A DNA stretch of 60,287 nt, filler included, from Globobulimina sp. (lineage: Eukaryota), in the NCBI GenBank assembly GCA_003354225.1. It is 7 parts of 7 records of this genome, joined end to end, with 100 filler letters (N's around TTAATTAATTAA, not from the genome) between each part and the next. Parts side by side here need not be neighbours in the genome. Positions count along the whole stretch, not along the records: positions 1 to 8,582 come from PIVH01000075.1; 6 more parts are not named here. The stretch is one strand, 5' to 3'. The notes below the pieces were generated by a model. That model saw nothing but the letters and a program-made list of their open reading frames with translations. It searched no databases and was not told where the DNA came from. Below, in pieces: positions 1 through 31,673 of the stretch (its first letter is position 1; every line of letters starts with the position of its first letter). The position numbers and the translations under genes were made by a program.

Positions 1-17
1 AACGCGGCTTTTCTTCA

Positions 18-108
18 ATTATGAAATTATGAAACGATTATGATGTGATTATGAAGATTTTTTGACTATATATAAATAGTCATATCTATTATTGTAAATT
101 GATTATGA
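18..108. repeat. Cluster of ATTATGA motifs
   Basis: ATTATGA at 18, 26, 37, 48 and 102. Its reverse complement TCATAA(T) recurs in the duplicated blocks at 3115 and 4354. Confidence 0.55.
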
Positions 109-222
109 ACTGTTTTGCATCATCATATTTAATAAAAAATGCTGTCATATTTCCATTAAACATAATATTTGGATATTTTTGTATCATAATATTAATATTT
201 GTCAATGTAACATATTGTATTT

Positions 223-480
223 CTATTGGTTGTATAATCTAAGCAAAGGAGCTTCCAATCTTTTGCAATATTTATCAATTTCATACTTTTCAACAAAGCC
301 ATCTATGCAATGACCAATGCATCGAACCGCAAACATAACAACGGCATTATTTGAATACCAAAACAAAGGAATAATGTGCTCACAAATGTGCTTTGTTTGT
401 CGTGTATTTGTTTTGAATTTGCTCAAAGATCCAATGTATAAACAACTCCAATGTATAAACAATAAATCCTCTTTCTTCAA
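223..480 (-). CDS. Small hypothetical ORF, possibly a 3' exon
   Basis: 85-codon open frame starting right after a TTAG acceptor-like site; no recognisable motif. Confidence 0.2.
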   Translation of the reverse strand: MKKEDLLFIHWSCLYIGSLSKFKTNTRQTKHICEHIIPLFWYSNNAVVMFAVRCIGHCIDGFVEKYEIDKYCKRLEAPLLRLYNQ

Positions 481-842
481 CTAAGTCATATGATATATTA
501 TGCAGTTTAGTAACACCCATTGCAGCCGTTTTAGTTTTTGAAAGACTGGCGAAAACTGTCCAAAATAAGAGATTTAATTCGAAGATGATAAGTTATATAC
601 ATTTAATTGAATTATCTAAGAAACTCTCAGTTTTCTATAAGTTTGTATTTGGTTTATTCTATGTACATAATAATAAAACAATAGAGCATGAATCTATAAA
701 ACATTCACAGTGTTAAATTTCAATAATAATTATATAAACACAAAGACAAAAATTTATAGCAATTACATGATTATGAATTTTTATTATTACTAAATTTGAC
801 TTTACAACACTAAAATTAGAATTTAGTATCAAGATACATACA

Positions 843-3062
843 TTGTTATTTATGAAACGCATAATAAATGATAATCAGTGTCATCAAAGATGTAAAAAAT
901 TTAAACACAACATTATAAATCAAAATAGTAAGACGTATCGATATTATTATGCAGATTGCTATCGCATTAAATATAATCCAAATTTTGAAAAAGAAATACA
1001 AAATGTAATAAATAATTCTAAATCAAAAATTATTATTCAAAAAACAAAATTTGGACAAATTGAAAATAATCATAATAACAAAAATATTAAACTCTATTAT
1101 GATGGATATGAATTTATTTCGAATGGATCTAATTTTATTTGCACAAAATGTAAATTTGGGTTACAATTATGCAGACAAAACAATATTGAATTGGTATTTA
1201 GCAATCAATCTGATCATAACTGCATTAACTTTAGAGATTCATCATTATTATCAAAATTATTTTCAGAAATAATTATAACAGAAATTGAATATAATATTAA
1301 GAATGACAGTTATACATCAATAACAAATCATTACGACAATGTGTATTTTAAATATTTAAATAAACATAAAGAAATGGATCTGGATATAGTTTTAAGGAAG
1401 AAACTGGTGGTGGAAAAAAGATTAAGAAAGCAGCGTGAATTTCAATCAGTTAGAGAAAGTAGTGTACAATCATTTATTAAAAAGGGAATTCATAAAAAAA
1501 TATTAAAATCAGTATTCAAAAGTGAAGAAACAGATATTTTAGTAATACCAAATAAAGACATAAATAATGATTCTGTATTTATTACAAGTATATTTCATTT
1601 GAAAATGTTAGGAGGTGGTAATGGTGCATTAGGTGATGGAACATTTGCTTTAAATGTGTCATGTTTGACAAAACATGAACAAATATTTAAGATAAATGTA
1701 ACATATTATTCAAAAACTGCAGCAAATAATCATTCAAAACGAAATAAAAACCATTTCAAAAGAGCTGCTGTTTATTTTTGTGGCATTGCGATTTTACAAA
1801 AGAAAGATATACCTCAATATGAATGGTTGTTTGGGGTAATTAATAATTTGTTTATACAAAATGGTATAAAAATAAAATTTACAACATACATTAGCGATTT
1901 TGAATGGGCACAAAGAAAAGCTTGGAAGAAGATATTTCCGTTAATTTTAACACAAGGTGAAACATTTCATTGGAATGGATGTATTTGGAAAGCTATACAA
2001 AGATTTCATTTAAAATGTTTATATGAAGTTAAGAAATATAGTAAAGATAATCAAATCAAATATGATTTTCGTTTTAGAGCAATTATTGAAATAATTTGGA
2101 CATTTCCATATATTCCGAAACAAAGAATATTAATTGTTTGGAAAAATGTTGTTATGTTATTTCTCGAACTTAGTCTAGTACTAAATGATATTGATATATC
2201 CAAAGGTATTATTCAATTAATATGTTATATACAAAATCAATGGATGGAAATACATGTTCATGGTTGTAGAAAAAGTCAATGGAAATTTGATGATTGGATT
2301 ATATACCAATGTTTAATTACATCAAATAATGCAACAGAAGCATTAAACAGACACCATATGTCAAACATTGAAAAACATCCAGAAATATTTAAATTTTTTT
2401 ATTGGTCATTTCGTGAATTACAAAAATCCAAACATAATTTTATACAAGATCAACAACATCCAAACAGTGTTTCTTTGCAACGAGAAAAAATTATTATCAA
2501 AAACGAAAGAGCCAATAAAATGGCAGAAACAATATTAAATACTAACGATGAAAAAGTAATAATGGATGAGGTGTTAAAATTTAGTTTTGTATTAACAGAG
2601 TATAGAGGAAAAATAAATATATATAATAGATATAAAACTACAACTTATAATATTGAAACAAATACAAATAATTCGGATATAAACTTAGATTTGAAACAAT
2701 TTTGTAACAGTAAAGAAATTAAAATAATTGGACAATATGATGGGAAATCTATTGAAGTTGAAGGACAAAATTGTGATAAACAACTAAATGTCAATTATAT
2801 ATATACAATGAATATTGATAAAAAATTATATACTAAATTAGAATTAGGTACAACATGGGTGGTCACAAAAAGTATAAACAAAAATTGGCCAAAAATGAGA
2901 AAGAATATGATAATTAAATTTAAAAATGGAAATAATATCATCGAAAGAAAAGTATTTAAAATTACAATCATACCTGGATATAATCACAATAAAAATAAGA
3001 ATGATAAATTTGCTTTAAAATTTGAGTTGACACCAATATTACCAAAATTTGATTTATCCTAA
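843..3062 (+). CDS. Mutator/MULE-family DDE transposase
   Basis: Catalytic motifs GDGTF (D1), ISDFE (D2), GETFHW (CxxH position) and TSNNATEALN (E). FLYWCH/WRKY-like zinc finger upstream (YDGYEF...CTKC...HNC). First ATG at 852. Confidence 0.85.
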   Translation: MLFMKRIINDNQCHQRCKKFKHNIINQNSKTYRYYYADCYRIKYNPNFEKEIQNVINNSKSKIIIQKTKFGQIENNHNNKNIKLYYDGYEFISNGSNFICTKCKFGLQLCRQNNIELVFSNQSDHNCINFRDSSLLSKLFSEIIITEIEYNIKNDSYTSITNHYDNVYFKYLNKHKEMDLDIVLRKKLVVEKRLRKQREFQSVRESSVQSFIKKGIHKKILKSVFKSEETDILVIPNKDINNDSVFITSIFHLKMLGGGNGALGDGTFALNVSCLTKHEQIFKINVTYYSKTAANNHSKRNKNHFKRAAVYFCGIAILQKKDIPQYEWLFGVINNLFIQNGIKIKFTTYISDFEWAQRKAWKKIFPLILTQGETFHWNGCIWKAIQRFHLKCLYEVKKYSKDNQIKYDFRFRAIIEIIWTFPYIPKQRILIVWKNVVMLFLELSLVLNDIDISKGIIQLICYIQNQWMEIHVHGCRKSQWKFDDWIIYQCLITSNNATEALNRHHMSNIEKHPEIFKFFYWSFRELQKSKHNFIQDQQHPNSVSLQREKIIIKNERANKMAETILNTNDEKVIMDEVLKFSFVLTEYRGKINIYNRYKTTTYNIETNTNNSDINLDLKQFCNSKEIKIIGQYDGKSIEVEGQNCDKQLNVNYIYTMNIDKKLYTKLELGTTWVVTKSINKNWPKMRKNMIIKFKNGNNIIERKVFKITIIPGYNHNKNKNDKFALKFELTPILPKFDLS

Positions 3063-3114
3063 ATATGATTGTCATTGTTGAAATTGTATTTCATTTAAAA
3101 TGTTTAACAAATAA

Positions 3115-3184
3115 ACTCATAATTTCTTCTTTTTTTAGAATCCATTTATAACTTTTCTCTATTATTACATATAAACTCATAACT
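3115..3184 (+). promoter_or_regulatory. Duplicated ~70-bp upstream block, copy 1
   Basis: Closely matches 4354..4423; ends about 60 bp before the ATG at 3243. Confidence 0.7.
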
Positions 3185-3242
3185 TTAATTTACTTATACT
3201 AATAATTTAACTCGATTAGAGTCACAGTTTCACAACAATAAA

Positions 3243-4322
3243 ATGGAGATATTGCCAGATGTAATTATTCAAATGATATTGTCATTCGATGAATATTGTA
3301 TAGAATATAGATTTGTAAGTAAAGTATTCAAAAACGCATCAGATAAAAATAATAGAATGAAATTAAAACAAAGAAAACAAACAATTAATGATGATCATGA
3401 AGCAAATATACATATTAAAAATACATATTTTGTTGATGGTGTTGATGCGGAATATTGGATTATTGATAAAAAACGTACTCAATTAAAAGATAAAGAAATT
3501 ACATTAGGATATAAAGGTCCAATTAATAATATTATGGATGCGATCGAGAATTGTAAATCTGGAGATACATTGCTGATTTATGATGGAAAATACAAAATTA
3601 AACATAAATTTGTCGGAGCAATCAGCCAATTAAATAAAATATCATTTATTGGAATGGGAGCAAATGTTATTTTTGAACAAATTCCGGCATTAATTTTTGA
3701 AGAAAATAATAATCATAGTACTATTTTTGTGAAAAATGATGTATATTTCAAAAACATTCGTTTTGATTGTGAAGATACCGGTCAGCTTGGATTAATCTGT
3801 GTAGTAGATAACGGTAACCTTTGGATGGAAAATTGTAAAATGTCATTTACTGGTTGCCCATTTGACAGGTATTGTAATGGAATTGTTATGCATGAATCGA
3901 TGGGGAAAAAACAGTCCATATACTTAAAACACTGTGAGTTTGAGGATCTATTGTGTGCTGTGTCTATATTTGCAGGAATAACTGGTGCGACTATCTTGGG
4001 ATGTAAATTTACAAATTGTGGATTCATGGAAGATGGATACGGAACACCAACTATTGCTGTACAAACATGGGAAGATGAATCTTCAATTTTTAAGAGCAAA
4101 ATTAGAATTATTGGTAATGAAGTGTTTGATGATGATATTGGGAAATGGATTGCATTTTGTTCTTATCAAAAGTTTAACGATTGGTTTAGTGAATTTGGCT
4201 CAAGATTTATATATGAAATAAAAAATAATTCAATCAAAGGGACAAATGCAATATTTACAAATGTAAACAATAAACCAGAAAAGCGTAATCCTAACAAGAT
4301 TTATTTGATGACATACTTTTAA
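3243..4322 (+). CDS. F-box-like plus right-handed beta-helix protein (FBXO10/11-like architecture)
   Basis: N-terminal ILPDVIIQMILSF...FVSKVF F-box-like motif. IMDAIENCKSGDTLLIYDGKY is a typical beta-helix entry, followed by repeated NC/HCEF-type coils. Confidence 0.65.
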   Translation: MEILPDVIIQMILSFDEYCIEYRFVSKVFKNASDKNNRMKLKQRKQTINDDHEANIHIKNTYFVDGVDAEYWIIDKKRTQLKDKEITLGYKGPINNIMDAIENCKSGDTLLIYDGKYKIKHKFVGAISQLNKISFIGMGANVIFEQIPALIFEENNNHSTIFVKNDVYFKNIRFDCEDTGQLGLICVVDNGNLWMENCKMSFTGCPFDRYCNGIVMHESMGKKQSIYLKHCEFEDLLCAVSIFAGITGATILGCKFTNCGFMEDGYGTPTIAVQTWEDESSIFKSKIRIIGNEVFDDDIGKWIAFCSYQKFNDWFSEFGSRFIYEIKNNSIKGTNAIFTNVNNKPEKRNPNKIYLMTYF

Positions 4323-4353
4323 TATACTATTTCTTCGTTGTGTACATCTGGTT

Positions 4354-4423
4354 ACTCATAATTCTATCTTTTTTTAGAATATATTTATACCTTTTCTCTA
4401 TTATTACAAATAAACTCATAATT
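4354..4423 (+). promoter_or_regulatory. Duplicated ~70-bp upstream block, copy 2
   Basis: Closely matches 3115..3184; ends about 70 bp before the ATG at 4493. Confidence 0.7.
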
Positions 4424-4492
4424 CCTTCCATTTTTAGACTTTAGTATTAGATTTATTTATCATTTCTTTAACAATCACAATAATAAATCAAA

Positions 4493-5704
4493 ATGTTATC
4501 AGTAGGAAAGAATCATGTACTTAATGGACAATTTAAGATTATAATGGAAGGTGATTACAAAGGAAAATGCGTCAGTTTGGTACAAAACACACGTACAGAA
4601 ATGTGTAGACTTATTTTAGAGATACCGTATGGTAATGTTGGTCAAATTATTACAATCACAAATGAAAGAGTTCTATCAACAAAGATTTGTTTACGCAAAT
4701 TGATGCAAGCAAACATTTATACCACATTTGTTTATCCTGAATCAGCAGCACAGACAATTACAATTGATGAAATTGATTATTCTAAATATGTAACATTATT
4801 TAATGAATATCCCAATAAAAAATTAGGATTATTATCAGCAAAAGAATTATTAGAAAACAAATCCAAACAACGATTCTGTTTCTTCGCAAAATTTATCGAA
4901 AGTGATATTCGTAATGGACATTTATTTATAAATGTTCTTGTAAATGATATTAAAGTATCGGTATTAAAATGGAATTATTCAGATACAATTAATTTTCCAG
5001 TTAATATATCATATTTATTATTTTTTAATGTAAGTGTTGGTGAACTTGGTGACAGAAAATTTATTCGTATGAATAAAGATTCCAGTGTATTTTATCAATT
5101 TGACACTGTTATTAAAAATAAAATTGTTGAGCATTGTGGAAGATGGAATTCATTACAAAGTGTTGATCAACGATTTTATAAGAAACAAAATTTGACACAG
5201 GTTAATGGTTTACAAGAAATGAAAATAACAGTAGAAGAGGAAGAAAAAGATTGTAAATTACCAGTAATTGATATCAAAGTGAATGCAGACAGATTAAAGT
5301 TTAGTATTTATACAAGACACAACACAAATGGATGTAACCAAGTGTCGATAGTTGGTGAAGAATGTAACAAATGTTATGAACCATTAGGTGATGTTGACAA
5401 ATCAAACTGGTGGCCATTTATGAACTTACAAATAAGTATTGGTGATGATGATATCAATGTAAAATTAAGTAATTCATCAATTAAACAAATATTAGAGAAA
5501 TGTGGTTATCTTGTTAATAAAAAATTAAATAAAATATTTAATGTATTATCAGATTCATTTTCAATGGAGTTAAGCAATGTAGAAGATAAAGTGTTTGAGT
5601 ATTTTGAAAATAATTCATCAATGAAAGCTGAATTGATTGCGAAACCAAGTGGTAATTCAAATTATCCAATGCAATATACAATTTCAAAATTTATATTCGT
5701 CTAA
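4493..5704 (+). CDS. Putative RPA70-like multi-OB-fold ssDNA-binding protein
   Basis: OB-like segment DIKVSVLKW...FFNVSVGELGDRKFIRMNKDSSV. Zinc-finger-like insert IYTRHNTNGC...CNKC followed by MNLQISIGD resembles RPA70 DBD-C. Confidence 0.55.
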   Translation: MLSVGKNHVLNGQFKIIMEGDYKGKCVSLVQNTRTEMCRLILEIPYGNVGQIITITNERVLSTKICLRKLMQANIYTTFVYPESAAQTITIDEIDYSKYVTLFNEYPNKKLGLLSAKELLENKSKQRFCFFAKFIESDIRNGHLFINVLVNDIKVSVLKWNYSDTINFPVNISYLLFFNVSVGELGDRKFIRMNKDSSVFYQFDTVIKNKIVEHCGRWNSLQSVDQRFYKKQNLTQVNGLQEMKITVEEEEKDCKLPVIDIKVNADRLKFSIYTRHNTNGCNQVSIVGEECNKCYEPLGDVDKSNWWPFMNLQISIGDDDINVKLSNSSIKQILEKCGYLVNKKLNKIFNVLSDSFSMELSNVEDKVFEYFENNSSMKAELIAKPSGNSNYPMQYTISKFIFV

Positions 5705-6196
5705 ATTAAAGCATGTAAAAGGGCATGCAAAGAAAATTTATATTATTTATTTTATGTTGTTTGTAGATTGAAATTAACTGCCAATATTTGATTGTAATAA
5801 ATTCGTTGGGTTTTCTATATTTCCCAACTTATTTGTTTTTTTGCTTTTTTAAATTTATTACATTCATTTTTTCATACAAAACATATGACTCACATAAGTG
5901 TTTATTGTGCATTCAAATTATTATTAATTATTTCATAGGCATAAAGAAGTATTCATGACAAAAGCTGAAATGCATGACGACGTTCTAAACAGTTATCATA
6001 TAGTATAGCAATAAACAACATACTATTACATTATAAATATAAATATCTAATATTTAATATTTGTATATTAACCATAATGATTATTATTATTGATAATCAG
6101 AAATTGATGGTTTGAATCCTGTAGCAACTCCAACACAAATAGGCATTCTCGCCCACCGGTAATAGACATTGTACTGCATTCTCCCTCTTCCTAAGA

Positions 6197-6367
6197 GCAA
6201 TTTAGCTGTGTTTGTTGTGAGATGCGCGATGCAATTTGGTTGTGTTTGCTGCCTAAGATTCGCGATGCAATTTGGCTGTGTTTGATGTGAGATTCACGGT
6301 GCAATTTGGCTGTGTTTGGTGTCTAAGATTCGCGATGCAATTTGGCTGTGTTTGATTCGCGATGCAA
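6197..6367. repeat. Tandem array of alternating 34/36-bp units (GCAATTTGGCTGTGTTTG core)
   Basis: Units start at 6197, 6231, 6267, 6301 and 6337 (34, 36, 34, 36, 27 bp), giving a 70-bp higher-order dimer. Confidence 0.95.
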
Positions 6368-6554
6368 GACAGTTTGCAGGTATTGATTTCACCGGTCAGC
6401 AATAGTGATTCAATGTGTATGTATGTTTGAGATATTTTATAGAAATACATCAACATAAATTTTATCTATTAAAATTTCATAATTATTGGTTGAGTGATAT
6501 TTATATCGTTATATTCAATTATGATTCTAATTTAAGATTATATTTTTAGTTTAA

Positions 6555-6773
6555 TTTTTCCAAATAACACCTCCATCACCTCCCAAACCTCCTCCTCAAC
6601 GACCAGGACCTCAACGACTAGGACCTGCACGACCTCCTCCATCTCCTCCTCAACGACCAGGTCCTCCACGACCTCCCAAACATCCTCCTCAACGAATTGA
6701 CACTGAAACAAATACAAAAGCCATAAAATATGAACAAGAAGAAGAAATTGGTGATTGTAGAAACAGATATTAA
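6555..6773 (+). pseudogene. Pro-rich coding-like segment, probable frameshifted N-terminus of the J-domain gene
   Basis: ATG-less open frame reading PPSPPKPPPQRPGP... Removing one A from the run at 6725-6728 joins it in frame to the ORF at 6730. Confidence 0.45.
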
Positions 6774-7148
6774 TGATGAGATACCAAGAAAAAGAAGAAA
6801 ACTCAATTCCTTGAATGTAGAATATTTTATGTCTGCAAATTTTTATGAAATGTTTGAATTAACAGAAAACAATTTTAACCAAACAATACTTAAAAAACAA
6901 TATCATGTTAAAGCAAAACTATTTCATCCAGATAAATGGGTAAATGGAACTGAAGAGCAACAAAAAAAAAGTGAACAAATATTTAAAATATTACAACAAG
7001 CATTTGATACATTAAGTGATGATAAAAAAAGAGCATATTATAATAATAATTCACATTTAAATGGAGATAAAGATAATAGTTTTACTTTATCTGAAGATGA
7101 AGATAGTATTGACAGATATGAGGATGAAGATAGTGATATTGATACTGT
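6730..7148 (+). CDS. DnaJ J-domain with basic NLS-like motif; probable N-terminal part of the helicase gene
   Basis: NFYEMF...KKQYHVKAKLFHPDK...FKILQQAFDTLSDDKKRAYYN with HPD intact; PRKRRK motif. The listed ORF turns into M/V/I nonsense after 7148 because the acidic tract is read out of frame. Confidence 0.85.
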
Positions 7149-8582
7149 GGTAATGATACATCTGAAAATAATGGTGATAATGATAATGATGGTGATAATG
7201 AAGATGAAGATGGTGATATTGATGACAATGATAATGGAGATGAAGACGGTGATAGTGATACATCTGAAAATAAAGAAAATGACATTGAATTTAAAAAAGA
7301 ATTAAATAAAATAATAAACAATGATTATACATTAACACAATTAAGAAATGGACCAATCGGTTTAGCAATATTAATTGGTAATTTAAGAAATGATATTTGT
7401 TTTCATGACAATGAATATATCGGGTTTAATGATGTTAGGCGTATTTATACTGCATTTTCAAAAGCAACATTAAGAGTTATCATATATAAATATGGAATTG
7501 ATATATGTGTACAAATGCTACAAAAATATCCTCAATTTAAAAGAGATGAATCACATGGCGTATTAAATATTCCATCATTAATTTCTCGTTTTAAAAACCC
7601 TCGAAGTTCAGTTGGTTTTATAAACAATATATTATCATGTATTGAAAAATGGCATGACAAAGAAAATGGACAAAAATTAAATGCAAAAATGAACAGAATT
7701 GACGGTGAATATCCAATTAAAGGTGGTCGTAAAATTAATATAAAAACAAAACAAATTACTGATAGAACAAAAAAAGATTATTTTAGTTATGAAATACCAT
7801 TGACATATTTACCGAATTTACAAGATTGTAATAACAAATATGGCAATTTTTTAAAGAATATCCATCGCAAACAAGAACATTTCGAATTTTTTAGAATGAT
7901 TTTAGGATATACATTTAAAGGTGGTATCAAAGCGTGGGAAATTATTTTTTGGTTTATAAATAATATGGGTGGCAATGGTAAATCATTAAATATCAAATGT
8001 TTAGAAATACCATTTGGGTTCTGGATAAGAGATATGGATCCACGTTTGATAAACAAAAAATCAAAAATTAATATTGGTGCGGAATTAAACAAATTAAAAA
8101 ATTGTTTGTTAGCAAAATTTGTTGAAACAAAAAATATTGAACCAGACGAAGAAGCATTGAAAAGATACAGTGGTGGTGATACTTTAAATCCAAGAGATTG
8201 TAATCAAAAAGGGTCGAAAACACAAGAACTTAAACCATCTCATTCATTGTGGATGATTGGACAAGACTTATCAAATTTCCAATTCGAAGATCAAGCTTTA
8301 CAAAGACGAAATTCTGTATTTCCATGTGTAACATATTTTAGATCACCTGGACAAAAAGGATATGATGCAAATGATCCAAATTGTATTATACCGGATAAAA
8401 ATATAAAGTCGGAAATTTTAGAACAAGGGGATCATATTTTAACATTTGTTATTAATTGCTGTAATGATGAACTCGGATGGGAACAATTAGGTAATGATTT
8501 TTGGAGTTGTCGACCAAAAGATTTTGATAACGATGATTTAAATGTAAACTCAAATGATTTACATAAATTTATTGCAGAGAAA
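7143..8582 (+). CDS. D5/P4-primase-type superfamily 3 helicase, 3' end cut by contig end
   Basis: D5_N-like motif KINIKTKQITDRTKKDYF, ILGYTFKG, Walker A GGNGKS, Walker B region LAKFVET, LKRYSGGDTLNPR, and DQALQRR arginine finger. The frame is open from 7143 with no ATG until 7515. Confidence 0.85.
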
Positions 8583-8682
8583 NNNNNNNNNNNNNNNNNN
8601 NNNNNNNNNNNNNNNNNNNNNNNNNNTTAATTAATTAANNNNNNNNNNNNNNNNNNNNNNNNNNNNNNNNNNNNNNNNNNNN
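8583..8682. other. Artificial contig spacer
   Basis: N-run, TTAATTAATTAA, N-run; 100 bp. Confidence 0.99.
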
Positions 8683-11361
8683 TGCGGAGGGAGATGGCGA
8701 CGGCGAGGTAGACAATGTGGATGTTAATATTTGTTTCTTTGCGTTGGAAAGCGGAGAGATTGGCGATTCGGGAGATATTGATTGGCTTATTCTGATTAAA
8801 GAGGACTGCTGCTCCTCCTCCGCCGATATCGATGGAGGCAGTGCCAACGGCAACGGCAAAGGCAAAGGCAATGGAGGTGGCGGCGGAGGAGTGTTGGTGC
8901 TGGTGGTCGATGACGATATTATCGGCTCAATCATTGGCGGTGCTATTTGTGCGATATTGTCCATTTTATGGTTATGGTTATGATGGTGATGGTGGCCATG
9001 ATGATGATGGCTATGATGATGACTATGATGATGGTGATGACTGCGATGTCGTTTAAGTGAGCGTGGATTATTAATTTTATTTAATAATAATATGGTCTTT
9101 GCTTGTATATTTAATCTGTTTTGATGTAATTTGTTGATCTGTTCAGTGGTAAATTGTATATGTTTCTGTTGATTTGTATATTCCAATCGTTTGTAGTCCA
9201 CAACGTGTTGGATCATTGACATTAAAAGTTTTGGATTTGGCGGTTTGCCAACAAAAGGATGGCTGATTAACTCTTTTAAAGATAATCGTTTTGTAAAAAT
9301 TTGATTTAATAAATCCAACGAATCGTTAGAGACATAATCCAATAAACAATTGGTTTGTAATAAATTAAATACGCCGCACTCTTGTAAAGATTTAAAATTT
9401 ATATCCAATTCTTTTTCATTTATATTTTTCCCCGTATTTATATCTTTCATTGTGCTCAAATCGATTTTACAATTTTTATTCCCGTTTAAATAGCCATACT
9501 GGCTCGGATTCTGTTGGTCCTTTTCAATATAAAATGGTGTGTCGTACGGCAAGGTGCAGGTTAACATGCAAAATAAGACGATGCCCAATGCGTAAATGTC
9601 TTCCTTCGAGGCATCATAAGCCTGCGCATATTTATATTTTAAAAATAATGCAGATTCAGGCGACATATATCGACATTTTCCCGGATAGGTTGAAACTGTA
9701 AAATCGTACTTTTCAAACTCATATTGATTCGGATTCGGATTCGGATTTTGATTCTGATTCTGATGTAATTTGCAGATGGTGGCGCGACCAAAATCAATTA
9801 GTTTGACCAGAAAATGACCGTTGGAATCAAAATGAAGAACAAAATTCTCGCATGAAATGTCTAAGTGTGCAATGCCTTGGCAATGCAAGATATAAATGGC
9901 CTGCACCATCTGTTGAAATACGAATTTCACCAATTCAATATATGCGTTACTGCCATCTTGAGAGAGGTGCAGCGAATCTCTATAAACATTGATTGACAAT
10001 TCACGCAATTTATTGTTTTTTATTTGATCAATTCGATAAATGTTTAATTTCTTATCTCTATAAATAATGCCATGATAGGCATCGATAAATAATAATAATT
10101 CGCCACAATTTGCAAATTCAGTCACCATAAAATAGCATTTCTTATCAACATCTTCCCAGTGCTCAATTAATTTTATTATATTCTTGTATGGTTCCTGCAG
10201 CCAGGCCAATAACGGCTTATTTAATAACAGGTTGTGATACGCATTCCGATAGATCAATTTTGTGATTTTTATTTCTTGGATGGCCTTCTCTTTCACCGGG
10301 ATGCCCGACAATGTTATGCCTAAATCGCAGCATTGCTTATCGTAATATTTTATTGCCAGTGTCGGTTTTGACGAGTAATTATTGATTAAATTGGTGACAT
10401 TGGGCCCGCCGTTGCCATTTATCACCTGTTCAATGAAACTGTCGCAATATTCGTAGCCAATGTATATGCATCCTTGCAACGTCTTGGCCTCCACTCCCAA
10501 ATTTAAATAATATTTGCCAGTTTTACACGAAAGGATGTATGAACCAATCGGTAAGCGGATCGAATCAAACTTGGAGACACTCTGATTATCCTCATTATGA
10601 TTATGCATATGATTGCAATTGTGATTATTGCGGTTTTTAGTGTATGTAATTAACCATTTTAAGTTTTTCTGCGCTTCGTGAACTTGCTGGGCCCACCGTT
10701 GCATTGTAAATAAAAATTGTAATCTCCGCGATAAGGTTGATATCTTTGTAGCAAATGAGATGTCGTTAATATTTGATTGGTTTAATAATTGTTTATATAT
10801 TTGTTGCTGTAATTGTTGGTCCGATACACTCAGTTTTTTCTCATCAATCAGAGCGTTTAACTGTTTTGTCGACACATGTAATAATTTCACGACATTCTCA
10901 TTCTCGTTATCATTGTCATTGTCATTGTCATCGTCATTCTCATTATCAAAGTCATCCTCAATGCCATACTCGTTATCATTATCATTATCATTATCATTTT
11001 CAATCTCTTGTTGAATATTAATATTATCCACATTTTTCCGACCCTGCTTTTTTGGGGGATTCGTCACAGAGATATTTGGTGAATTATTATTATTATTATT
11101 ATTATTTTGTTGTTGTCTTTGCATTTGTTCCATTTGCTGCATTTGCTGCAGTTGCATTTGTTGCAGTTGTTGAATTTGTTGAAGCCGTAATTGTTGGAGC
11201 TGTATTTGTTGTGCATATGTACTGCTTTGTTGGTATTGTTGCTGTGGCATTGCTTGCATTTGTTGCATTTGTTGCATTTGTCTTAGTTGCTCCATATACT
11301 GAAGTTCTTGCATGTATTGTTCATGCTGTTGTGGTGTCAATTGAGCCATTTGAGGATTCAT
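8683..11361 (-). CDS. Ser/Thr protein kinase with Gln-rich N-terminus and His/Pro-rich C-terminus, 3' truncated
   Basis: LAIKYY (beta-3 Lys), HLDISCEN catalytic loop, DFG, GKCRYMSPE, DIYALG. Confidence 0.9.
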
Positions 11362-29274: not shown

Positions 29275-31673
29275 TTAGACTTTACATTTTTTACAAAACT
29301 GAACAATCAGTCTTAGAATATCTCGAGGAACCGTGAGTGTACAATGCCTTTGCCGAATATAACCCGACATAAAGAGCTTGAGGTTTCTATATTTTAATAG
29401 TTTGACAGCTTCATGTATTCCATAACCAGATAATTGCAGTTGCACTACATCTTTATTCCAGATTGATGCTGATTTTTCATGATTTGGATTAATACAAAAT
29501 ATGAAATATGGTTCCGAGTTTGCTATATTTTCAAATAAATTTCTCATCATCAAAGTAAAAACACGAGTTCTTGATTTTTTTCTTCTGCTCTTTCGTCTAA
29601 AACCAACTGTTCCTTTCAATATCTCATTGGTTGATTTTTTCATCATTGTACCTGTGTCACAATGCATTAATTCCATGTTTTTATAGAGAAATTGCGATAA
29701 ATCATAAGTAATATCAGCATTGAAATGATTCACTATCATGCCATTAAACCGTACGCGTGAACCCTTCTTTTTCTTTTTAGACTTTTTGGGCATTGCCCCT
29801 CTGCACTGTCCAGATGCTCTACGTGTAACTTTGCCAAATATGTCACGCTTTGCATGTCGTTTAAAGAATTCCTGTAAAAACGCTGCAATGTCAGGTTTTG
29901 GTGCCTTACACGCCCCATCTAACAGTGCAAAAAAACCAGTGTTTTTAGCATCCATTAATTCAACATATTTTGTATCCATTTCAAAACACTCTGATTTCCA
30001 TTTTATAGCTTCATCCTCGACATCGCCAACAATATAATAATTAAAGTATTCTTGCAATTTTTCATTGCAGTGATTAGCGCACAAATGATACAAATTATTA
30101 ACATTAAAATTCTGATAACCCATTGCATCTAAAATGGAAATAAAACTTATGTCTTTCACATTAAATTCAGCAGAAAAATCTAACTCCGCATTGATTCTCT
30201 CACAAATCCATAAAAATAGATTTTCATAAAGACCGCGAGCCATATAATCTCTGTTTGATACGGCATCCGATTCCGATCCGCAACAGCCACTGTAAGCAGT
30301 GCGGTCATATACTAATTTCCTACGAATCCTTTTTCCGATGAAAATCGTTTGAGTGCTTAATCTTTCTTCCAATGCTCGTGTTGTAATACCCCACAAAGAT
30401 GATACAGTTTGAACAAATTGCATCGAATTTGCATCAATTTCAGCAAACCCATCACCGCGTCGTTTGAATGTAATATTACCCAAATGCATTATTCCTGATA
30501 CTATGTCAAATATCATTTCCTGCGCAGACTCGTCAATTTGTAACACTTTGAATGAATGTTTTAATTTTTCAAACCTTTCTTTGTCATCACTGCAACACAT
30601 TGAATCGAAACCGTTGTTGAGATAATTAAACTGCTCAACAGATTGCGAAGCATCATATGTATGGAGCATATAAAATATATGAAAACTACGTTGATGGAGT
30701 GCTTGATGTGTTACTCTTGATTTTTCCAATAAATATGTGTCCAAATACATACCTAAAATATCTGCTGTTTTGTCTGAATTTTGTGGCACCGCATATAATA
30801 ATTTTATATATTGACTGAAGCGCGAAGAGTTATTATTTCTCATTGTTTTTGCATTACCAAACGCTTCCAATACAGACACAAACTCAAGAATCTGTTCCTT
30901 CATTTTAAGGTTATTCCATGATGATGGAGGGGATGCCGTTGATGCCAGATATTTGATCAATAATTTTGCTGTTTCAGTCTAAGTATAGAATAAAAACTAT
31001 ATAGTTAATTGCAAAGTAATTGTACAGTTTTAACTTTTCCTGATCCTGATTCACCACAAATAATGATAGATTGGTTGGATTTTGATTGGACCATTTTGGT
31101 AAACGCATCGGCAGCAATAGAATATGGGTGTAATGTATTGGATAATATGCCTTTTTTAGACTGATTATTAAATTTAATGATCATATCTTGCCCATAAATG
31201 GATAATTTGTTGTAAGGATTAACTGATAATAAAACATTTATATCTTTGATTGAAGTATAATATGATTTGCTTGGTTGGCTATATCTGCACAGCATATTAT
31301 GATCAATGTTTTCTACGCCAAAATGTATTAATTGGGACAGATCATCAACGCCATCCAAGCATTTTGAATTGCCAATATATTGCGTGTTTTCTTTGCAATC
31401 ACTTCTATTTCTGCTTATTTTATTGTCTGCTTCTTTTGGAACATTAAGTTTAATAACTTGATGAATTTGCTTCAATTGCAACTGTGTCAATACATATTCA
31501 TTGCGGTAGTTTGTAGATAAACAGTGACTTAATATCGTATCGATGCCACCGAGTATGCTCACTAATTGTTCAGCTTTTTGTGCATTGTTTGCGCCAACAG
31601 ATAATTGTTGGTCATGCAGACTTTTCAAATCTGATTTGCTAAGCACCGCAGCTACTTCTTGGTCGAAGCTCAT
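29275..31673 (-). CDS. Truncated, degenerate myosin motor-domain protein, two exons (intron 30979..31034)
   Basis: LLSVNPY, P-loop GESGSGK|TE across the intron, LEAFGNAKTMRNNNSSRF, NEKLQ, FCINPN. Ends before the converter and IQ region. Confidence 0.85.

Follow-up and report, generated by a model that had tools for sequence, protein, structure and literature searches.

The polyomavirus large T antigen combines an N-terminal J domain carrying an HPD motif, a basic NLS-like stretch and a superfamily 3 (SF3) helicase, and repeated DNA elements lie nearby. Among transposons, the idea of joining DDE integration to replication genes of one's own is known from Teratorn (a piggyBac transposase with a herpesvirus) and from Polintons, or Mavericks (an rve integrase with a protein-primed PolB), while Helitrons are mobile elements with both a helicase and an RPA-like ssDNA-binding protein (PMC6431247). 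Pack-MULEs are described in the available part of the same source as non-autonomous, 1–2 kb long, TIR-bounded and holding gene fragments rather than full replication genes (PMC6431247). In Halocafeteria seosinensis, MULEs are nested in endogenous polinton-like viruses and virophages, and MULE insertions that lack TIRs are also present, according to the part of that study available to us (10.64898/2026.07.28.741278).

The window analysed here is a 60,287-nucleotide stretch of Globobulimina sp. DNA made of seven unrelated contigs of ~8.5 kb, with N44 + TTAATTAATTAA + N44 spacers at the joints; the region that we studied is the first of these (contig 1, positions 1–8582). Its GC content is 26.5%, vs 30.9–38.2% in the other six contigs, and its plus strand carries five long ORFs in an intron-free arrangement. 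GC3 is 0.14–0.21 in all five genes, and a GC3 below 0.21 occurs in only 2 of the 31 long frames of the other six contigs, which hold no paralogues of the contig 1 genes. The features are as follows.

92–520, minus strand: broken adaptin-like gene fragment (stop-to-stop frames; Pfam Adaptin_N match of one piece)
852–3062, plus strand: DDE transposase of the MULE (Mutator-like) type, 736 aa, its N-terminal zinc finger FLYWCH-like (Pfam and Atlas features)
3107–3182, plus strand: shared intergenic block, copy 1 (self-comparison repeats, 68 nt at 90% and 33 nt at 91%)
3243–4322, plus strand: ORF2, 359 aa, N-terminus F-box-like by eye only (ORF)
4354–4438, plus strand: shared intergenic block, copy 2 (self-comparison repeats)
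4493–5704, plus strand: ORF3, 403 aa, candidate multi-OB single-stranded-DNA-binding protein (Atlas features)
6186–6367, no strand: five direct repeats of 34–36 nt each (self-comparison and tandem-repeat detection, score 214–264)
6569–6711, no strand: GC-rich 15/39-nt minisatellite (self-comparison and tandem-repeat detection)
6730–7134, plus strand: J-domain section of the predicted J-helicase gene, containing HPD and preceded by the basic stretch PRKRRKL (Pfam DnaJ)
7143–8582, plus strand: acidic linker, D5_N-like region and D5-type SF3 helicase core (translation, PHROG and HMMER relatives)

We lean towards reading contig 1 as a fragment, truncated on either side, of a virus-derived gene island that is AT-rich and free of introns and contains a replication module; the island would either have integrated into the genome of the eukaryote or have been co-assembled with that genome. 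The module would have three parts: a J-domain helicase gene, the five 35-nt repeats as a candidate origin, and ORF3 as a candidate single-stranded-DNA-binding protein (SSB).

The fourth ORF (6730–7305) matches DnaJ (PF00226) over residues 37–105 with an E-value of 6.6e-12 (45.8 bits). Each of the 20 PDB sequences that it hits at E ≤ 0.001 belongs to a cellular J-domain protein (DnaJ homologues, HscB and zuotin; best E 3.3e-7). This domain is missing from the sequence-only reading, an account made earlier from the DNA without database searches. Downstream, the helicase reading frame is free of stops from 7143 on; its first ATG is at 7515, and it runs off the end of the contig. That reading had named a D5-type SF3 helicase here, and the searches bore it out: the ORF at 7515–8582 matches four PHROG families described as 'DNA primase' or 'DNA polymerase/primase' (best E 3.7e-14), and HMMER returned 1223 relatives (100 at E ≤ 1e-10, best identity 39%). 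In helicase alignments, the Walker-A residues G152/G153/G155/K156 as well as E204 and R264/R265 are invariant columns. Among the best 10 of the 1223 relatives, D5_N is found in two and DUF5906 in four, with only one D5_N match above the Pfam cut-off. The query itself has no Pfam match, and gave none in a word-based protein search, a single-protein scan of viral contigs or a PDB sequence search, where neither T antigen nor E1 was matched. A scan of prokaryote genomes with the helicase alignment found nothing, and a profile of the helicase subfamily run against PDB sequences returned no D5 structure and one spurious row.

Several observations bear on how the two ORFs are related. Past about position 7150 the J-domain frame reads as hydrophobic nonsense, while in the helicase frame 124 codons ahead of the first ATG are free of stops in DNA of 26% GC, and the stretch ahead of Met-7515 aligns with the N-terminal module of the helicase relatives. 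The two frames differ by a one-base offset inside an acidic repeat. At 7135–7143 the Logan contig from the same run, the sole Logan contig there (depth 18.1 of 18.1), has 8 + 1 + 3 + 4 = 16 extra letters; 16 is 1 mod 3, exactly the frame offset, in support of a single frame through both domains. The J domain is most likely the N-terminus of the helicase gene, forming one predicted polypeptide (J domain, acidic linker, D5_N-like region, D5-type SF3 helicase) that would appear as two ORFs only through an offset that Logan's contig does not have. A J domain was found in 0 of 155 helicase relatives, which makes this sequence the only known instance of the putative fusion, and our literature search found no fusion of a J domain to a superfamily 3 helicase.

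This predicted protein would share with large T antigen a J domain with its HPD motif, a basic NLS-like stretch, an SF3 helicase and nearby repeats that may serve as an origin. It differs in that its helicase belongs to the D5/primase-helicase branch, with a D5_N-like region, in that its J domain matches cellular DnaJ proteins and no T antigens among the 20 PDB matches, and in that no origin-binding domain was identified in it. By analogy, the large-T-antigen layout seems to have been re-invented convergently on a different SF3 branch. With the D5- or C962R-type primase-helicases of NCLDVs and PLVs it has in common a homologous helicase core and the D5_N-like region, whereas no AEP primase domain was found in the window (no Pfam match; tblastn with two viral primase-helicases matches the helicase part only) and a J domain stands at the N-terminus instead.

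The repeat array lies 363 nt ahead of the J-domain ATG, in a non-coding gap of 1 kb. The iteron-like repeat of the earlier account is present as about five tandem units of ~35 nt; tandem-repeat detection placed it at 6197–6356, with either a period of 36 in 4.6 copies or a period of 70 in 2.3 copies at 91%. The array contains no ORF of at least 35 aa with a start codon and matches no tRNA or Rfam family, and the 18-mer of the repeat unit is absent from the viral contigs searched. We treat it as a candidate origin or iteron array. The neighbouring minisatellite at 6569–6711 is proline-rich in one frame, with no start codon and no Pfam match. A tRNA-like appearance at 6100–6170 was rejected. Contig 1 as a whole has no tRNA and no Rfam family.

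ORF3 is probably a multi-OB protein and a candidate SSB, judging from its predicted features. Its Atlas features lie at 0.95/0.94 to the POT1, MEIOB and REPA_OB_2 clusters, with 9 of the 10 best matches in one family or clan. An RPA70-like OB protein had been proposed for this gene; the OB part of that proposal agrees with the POT1/MEIOB/RPA-type clusters, but Atlas recognition is 2126, under the mark of 2300, and ORF3 has no Pfam or PHROG match and no meaningful match in the PDB, where its sole row (E 0.33, to an unrelated 65-residue chain) is at chance level. Neither the word-based protein search nor the viral contigs yielded relatives of ORF3, and a single-sequence AlphaFold model (pLDDT 30) was unusable and discarded. 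The adjacent ORF2 had been described as an F-box gene, an assignment that our searches do not support: ORF2 matches no Pfam family even at E ≤ 10, and the likeness is at motif level, by eye only. It also has no PHROG match and no relatives in viral contigs, and its AlphaFold model made without an alignment (pLDDT 30.6) was likewise discarded.

ORF2 and ORF3 do have the common upstream block previously ascribed to two of the genes. The copies at 3107–3182 and 4354–4438 are 90% alike over ~70 nt and are similarly spaced: the first begins 45 nt past the MULE stop and ends 61 nt ahead of the ORF2 ATG, and the second begins 32 nt past the ORF2 stop and ends 55 nt ahead of the ORF3 ATG. In the 60 kb, the 18-mer core of the block is confined to these two sites, vs 0.15 expected. 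The motif AAACTCATAA was considered as a specific signal and rejected, since it is not enriched in the window (13 matches vs 13.8 expected), and specificity lies only in the longer block. The two genes may share a promoter-like element.

The transposase was counted as 736 aa from the first ATG and has an extra C-terminal region. Its identification as a MULE transposase is supported: the Atlas protein-language-model features lie at 0.95 to the MULE and MULE+FLYWCH clusters (10 of the 10 best matches in one family or clan; recognition 2614), and residues 309–376 match PF10551 at profile positions 28–95 of 99 with an E-value of 8.9e-5 and 23.3 bits, below the cut-off of 27.6. By eye, against the consensus, the putative catalytic triad would be D (GDGTF), D (ISDFEW) and E (NNATEALN), and the ORF looks intact. 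No relatives of the transposase were found by the word-based protein search, in viral contigs or in metagenomes, and it has no PDB match by sequence. As no relatives were detectable in the searches made, nothing shows the MULE, ORF2 or ORF3 to be viral.

Overall, in the assembly as it stands, the MULE, the helicase and the candidate SSB are physically linked on one contig. In the island that we favour, the J-helicase would assemble at the 35-nt repeats, its J domain would recruit host Hsp70, as that of polyomavirus large T antigen does, and the ORF3 OB protein would coat the unwound strands; priming and synthesis would be supplied by genes beyond the contig or by the host. The MULE is a same-strand neighbour of the same composition; unless it is the island's integrase, it would be a resident or nested transposon gene. 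Against this reading count the low Atlas recognition of the OB protein, a J–helicase fusion known from a single sequence, the uneven read depth with loose ends at 5803–5849, the lack of a D5 structure among the PDB rows of the helicase profile, the broken host-type adaptin fragment, the orphan status of the MULE, ORF2 and ORF3, and the lack of a polymerase, primase or capsid gene in 8.6 kb. On this last point our searches agree with the earlier account, which had seen no polymerase or capsid gene: among the Pfam and PHROG matches of the five ORFs of this truncated contig there is no pPolB, capsid protein, packaging ATPase, protease, or rve or tyrosine integrase.

The closest relatives of the helicase, of 500–650 aa, come from metagenomes and a foraminifer transcriptome and have no Pfam primase domain. 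More distant ones were found by helicase alignments in seven IMG/VR contigs, of which one bears a giant-virus MAG label, and include AEP_C962R primase-helicase fusions; the viral-contig relatives with AEP_C962R and DUF5906 are 24–27% identical to the query.

A bolder reading, which we consider unlikely, is that contig 1 is one mobile element in which a MULE integrase travels with its own replication module, so that it would be either a Mutator-type transposon able to replicate itself or a DNA virus using a MULE for integration. All the genes share a strand and are tightly spaced (170–180 nt), GC3 is equally low in all five, and the shared block, starting so close behind the MULE stop, places the MULE inside the same regulatory layout. 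The transposase, intact-looking by eye, is near the left edge beside a host-like fragment, like a terminal integrase gene. The sequence-only reading had named TIRs of the transposase's own, excluding the other genes, as evidence against such an element; these were not seen, as contig 1 has no inverted repeats around the transposase or around any other feature, and the best reverse self-match (29 nt at 86%) is low-complexity sequence. Teratorn offers a precedent, with its piggyBac transposase and herpesvirus, and the idea is shared with Polintons, although the contig 1 transposase is of the Mutator superfamily, no polymerase or capsid was found and the unity of the element is putative (compared with the available part of PMC6431247). 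Helitrons resemble contig 1 in carrying an RPA-like protein and a helicase, but the contig 1 helicase is of SF3, and no HUH Rep endonuclease or PIF1-type helicase was matched by Pfam in any contig 1 ORF (same part of PMC6431247).

Several points weigh against a single element. Only one truncated copy is known, and no TIRs or TSDs were seen within contig 1, both ends of which are open, so that a larger element would have its termini outside the contig. The other contig 1 genes are absent from the seven viral and four metagenome loci with helicase relatives (24–37% identity; metagenome loci of 1.2–2.3 kb), the fused form occurs in none of the 155 relatives, and the literature search found no element joining a Mutator transposase to an SF3/D5-like helicase. 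In addition, nested MULEs, some with TIRs and some lacking them, are known from endogenous viral elements, as the available part of the Halocafeteria study describes (10.64898/2026.07.28.741278). Nesting of this kind provides a mundane alternative for the MULE–helicase neighbourhood, as there too a MULE gene adjoins virus-type replication genes in a protist-type genome. In that part of the study, however, the nested MULEs differ in GC from their surroundings and the viral elements have a capsid and an integrase, whereas the contig 1 MULE matches the genes beside it in composition, and neither a capsid nor a polymerase nor an rve integrase was found in 8.6 kb (10.64898/2026.07.28.741278). If the island is one unit, we consider it possible, though doubtful, that the MULE is its integrase; that it is the integrase of the replication module is unlikely.

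The next alternative, which we rate as rather improbable, is a transposon-rich, AT-rich host region with no functional unit, where a resident MULE, a viral or plasmid helicase relic and lineage-specific orphans happen to lie side by side. The adaptin-like fragment at the left end bears on this. It consists of three successive frames (383–520, 226–480 and 92–238), of which the piece at 92–238 matches Pfam Adaptin_N at profile positions 279–314 of 524 (E 5.8e-4, 19 bits, cut-off 37). Logan depth is 63–85 across 1–574 vs about 24 further inward, and the Logan contigs of the same run have several variant letters at 293–428. The fragment is missing from the sequence-only reading, which placed all genes on one strand; that holds for the five long ORFs and not for everything on the contig, because the fragment is on the minus strand. 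By its sequence the fragment appears host-type and suits a host or transposon-rich setting, and as a multi-variant, higher-depth piece it fits a repeat family. It also recalls Pack-MULEs in that a captured-looking host gene fragment, here adaptin-like, lies in a MULE setting; Pack-MULEs differ in being TIR-bounded, as the available part of the source has it (PMC6431247), while no TIRs were seen in contig 1. The presence of minisatellites, the orphan status of three of the five proteins and the similarly low GC3 in 2 of 31 frames of the other contigs likewise fit a host region. Such a region accounts poorly for ORFs that are long and open (359–736 aa and more) despite stop-rich 26%-GC DNA, for the common regulatory block of ORF2 and ORF3, and for the intron-free, one-strand arrangement.

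Read support bears on the assembly itself. One sequencing run, X1, contains contig 1 (0.92 share of words), covering 30 of 30 bins, and no RNA run is listed as containing it; one Logan contig of X1 extends 554 nt beyond the right end. Two further runs from the same sample, X2 and X3, give almost no cover, which is neither evidence of absence nor a measure of copy number. Logan depth along the contig is very uneven (3 to 85, reaching 124 at 5844). Two apparent joints (1007 to 6932 and 1867 to 6049), whose sides measure 24 and 21 letters, were dismissed as repeat matches. An assembly chimera, in which a short repeat would bridge a MULE/ORF2/ORF3 half and a J-helicase half of separate molecular origin, is very improbable: the loose ends before 5803 and behind 5849, on either side of a 47-nt stretch that includes the depth peak, the depth of 3–6 across 6028–6888 vs 12–38 on the flanks and the one local error already present at 7135–7143 would fit it, but the run covers every bin, both halves have the same extreme GC3, and loose ends number 26 along the whole contig, as expected of short unitig-like contigs.

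The favoured reading of contig 1 as a virus-derived island leaves room for a larger claim, namely a new class of eukaryotic mobile replicon, a virus–transposon hybrid with Mutator-type integration, an iteron origin, a large-T-antigen-like J-domain/D5-type SF3 helicase and its own RPA-like SSB, which we regard as quite unlikely. If true, it would be a third case, independent of Polintons and Teratorn, in which a cut-and-paste transposase has been united with viral replication genes. Were the MULE the integrase, Mutator would become one of the few transposase superfamilies that DNA viruses or self-replicating transposons have recruited, and the locus would bear on the exchange of modules between large DNA viruses and transposons. 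Regardless of the role of the MULE, the J–D5-helicase gene is of interest in itself, with the hypothesis that it recruits Hsp70 to a replicative helicase.

The window joins seven contigs of 8.4–8.6 kb in order of decreasing size (8582 to 8436 bases), with N44 + TTAATTAATTAA + N44 at each junction; ORFs running across these spacers were rejected as artefacts of concatenation. Contig 1 (positions 1–8582) has 26.5% GC, compared with 30.9–38.2% in the other six contigs, and no above-chance nucleotide or protein similarity to them was found. Its plus strand carries five long ORFs, and GC3 is 0.14–0.21 in all five genes, whereas just two of the 31 long frames on the other six contigs lie below 0.21. 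Those contigs carry host-type genes split over several frames as if by introns (for example, a myosin-like frame at 29278–30978) and, on the minus strand of contig 2, a 908-aa protein-kinase-like ORF with long poly-Q, poly-N and His-rich runs (8635–11361). We favour, with some reservation, the reading that contig 1 is part of a replication island of viral origin, in which a J-domain–D5-helicase would act as the initiator alongside a putative origin and SSB, with the MULE gene as a neighbour. The following features were identified.

Features of contig 1 and the spacers
92–520, minus strand, broken gene piece in three successive frames
852–3062, plus strand, MULE-type transposase (Pfam PF10551 and Atlas features)
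3243–4322, plus strand, ORF2, no family match
4493–5704, plus strand, ORF3, candidate SSB (Atlas OB-fold clusters)
6186–6367, direct-repeat array of five 34–36-nt units, between ORF3 and the J-helicase gene
6569–6711, GC-rich minisatellite (15/39-nt), in the same gap
6730–7305, plus strand, ORF with a DnaJ J domain
7515–8582, plus strand, D5-type SF3 helicase (PHROG and HMMER relatives)
8583–8682 and five further places, spacers

The sequence-only reading had named the transposase, the helicase, the repeat array and a block shared by the upstream regions of two genes, each of which proved real, together with an OB protein that is plausible and an F-box that found no support. The helicase frame matches four PHROG families (DNA-primase or polymerase/primase, best E 3.7e-14) and a HMMER search of 1.84 billion representatives gave 1223 relatives at E ≤ 0.001 (top identity 39%), with Walker-A and arginine columns invariant among the aligned relatives. 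It runs off the right end of contig 1, and one contig in Logan (contigs assembled from sequencing runs) extends 554 nt further. The J domain (Pfam E 6.6e-12, HPD motif) was absent from the earlier account; its PDB matches are all cellular DnaJ-type proteins (20/20, with no T antigens). Directly before it, a basic PRKRRKL stretch (6784–6804) resembles, by eye, a nuclear localisation signal.

The J domain and the helicase most likely belong to one gene. No stop interrupts the helicase frame from 7143 onwards, so that it stays open over the 124 codons before its first start codon; with stops expected at roughly 9% of codons in random sequence of 26% GC (our own estimate), this is very unlikely by chance. 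This stretch encodes an acidic D/E/N linker and then the region before the helicase core, which aligns with the N-terminal module preceding the core in all close relatives. Past ~7150 the J-domain frame turns into hydrophobic nonsense, and the two frames are offset by one base. At 7135–7143, the sole Logan contig from X1, the run that contains contig 1, has 8 + 1 + 3 + 4 = 16 extra letters (depth 18.1/18.1), which is 1 mod 3 and the exact offset between the frames. Most likely, then, the acidic repeat (repeats D3, D7, D9, D11) collapsed locally in the window's assembly and so split the gene, and the predicted order, judged from sequence, is most likely J domain, acidic linker, D5_N-like region and SF3 helicase.

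The gap upstream of this gene is 1 kb. TRF scores of the direct-repeat array are 214–264, and its 70-nt double unit is 91% alike. The minisatellite, read in the helicase frame, is proline-rich (PPxPP/QRPGP units), with stops on either side and no start codon; the J-domain ATG follows immediately, and Logan depth over the minisatellite is at its minimum (3–6). No tRNA or Rfam family was found on contig 1. The shared block, ~70 nt and 90% alike between the MULE–ORF2 and ORF2–ORF3 spacers, lies upstream of both genes, its end 61 nt from the ATG of ORF2 and 55 nt from that of ORF3, and its core has no third occurrence in the window. Given this placement before both start codons, ORF2 and ORF3 probably share a promoter.

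ORF2 has no Pfam or PHROG match, the F-box having been a likeness by eye. For ORF3, no Pfam, PHROG or meaningful PDB match was found. Atlas, which compares protein-language-model features with protein clusters, places it with POT1, MEIOB and REPA_OB_2-type OB-fold clusters (0.95/0.94; 9 of the 10 best matches from one family or clan), a lead rather than proof since recognition (2126) is under the 2300 mark. Single-sequence AlphaFold models of ORF2 and ORF3 were unusable (pLDDT 30.6 and 30.0, respectively). The transposase matches PF10551 at E 8.9e-5 (23.3 bits, under the gathering score of 27.6) and, independently of Pfam, Atlas groups it with MULE and MULE+FLYWCH clusters (0.95, recognition 2614; 10/10 best matches from one family or clan). 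Compared by eye with the consensus, it shows a FLYWCH-like finger and candidate motifs for the three catalytic residues: GDGTF (D), ISDFEW (D) and NNATEALN (E).

The sequence-only reading had proposed that the transposase and the replication genes could form a single element. Their common strand, the 170–180-nt spacers, the uniformly low GC3, the start of the shared block 45 nt past the MULE stop codon and the lack of an inverted repeat bracketing the transposase in a self-comparison of contig 1 are consistent with this. However, we consider it unlikely, as no relatives were detectable for the transposase (word-based protein search, viral contigs, metagenomes), ORF2 (viral contigs) or ORF3 (word-based protein search, viral contigs), and seven IMG/VR loci with helicase relatives (24–27% identity) lack relatives of the other four proteins. 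Two helicase ORFs from these loci were checked, one being an AEP_C962R primase–helicase fusion. Four metagenome loci with helicase relatives span 1.2–2.3 kb, too short to tell. In addition, no primase domain was found in the window and no MULE-integrating virus-like element in the literature, and the ordinary alternative, with a precedent in 10.64898/2026.07.28.741278, is a MULE nested in an endogenous viral element. That contig 1 is a host transposon-rich region is likewise improbable. A chimera of two wrongly joined halves would fit the uneven Logan depth (3 to 85) and the loose ends on both sides of a 47-nt T-rich stretch at 5803–5849 (depth 124 at 5844 in X1), but is unlikely because the halves share composition. 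The T-rich stretch is a short repeat common to other places in the sample. Single-letter mismatches between contig 1 and the Logan contigs of X1 occur at 1405, 2861, 3306 and 4573, each at full Logan depth, and three fall in MULE or ORF2 coding sequence.

At the left end (1–574), one part of the broken gene piece matches Adaptin_N under the cut-off (E 5.8e-4). Depth in X1 over the first ~570 bases is two to three times that of the rest of the contig, and at least four Logan contigs cover this segment, with variant letters at 293–428, which implies several diverged copies in X1 and a small repeat family. The piece may represent host DNA at the flank, a fragment that was captured or the element's edge.

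Returning to the replication island, its predicted initiator appears to be new. No J domain was found among 155 helicase relatives (phmmer) or the best 10 of the 1223 (Pfam), and we found no description of a J-domain–SF3 helicase fusion in the literature. Metagenomes and a foraminifer transcriptome are the sources of the closest helicase relatives; two of the ten closest (P0003 and P0005) belong to the transcriptome set, so at least one protist, or something sequenced along with it, transcribes this primase-less D5_N+SF3 subfamily.
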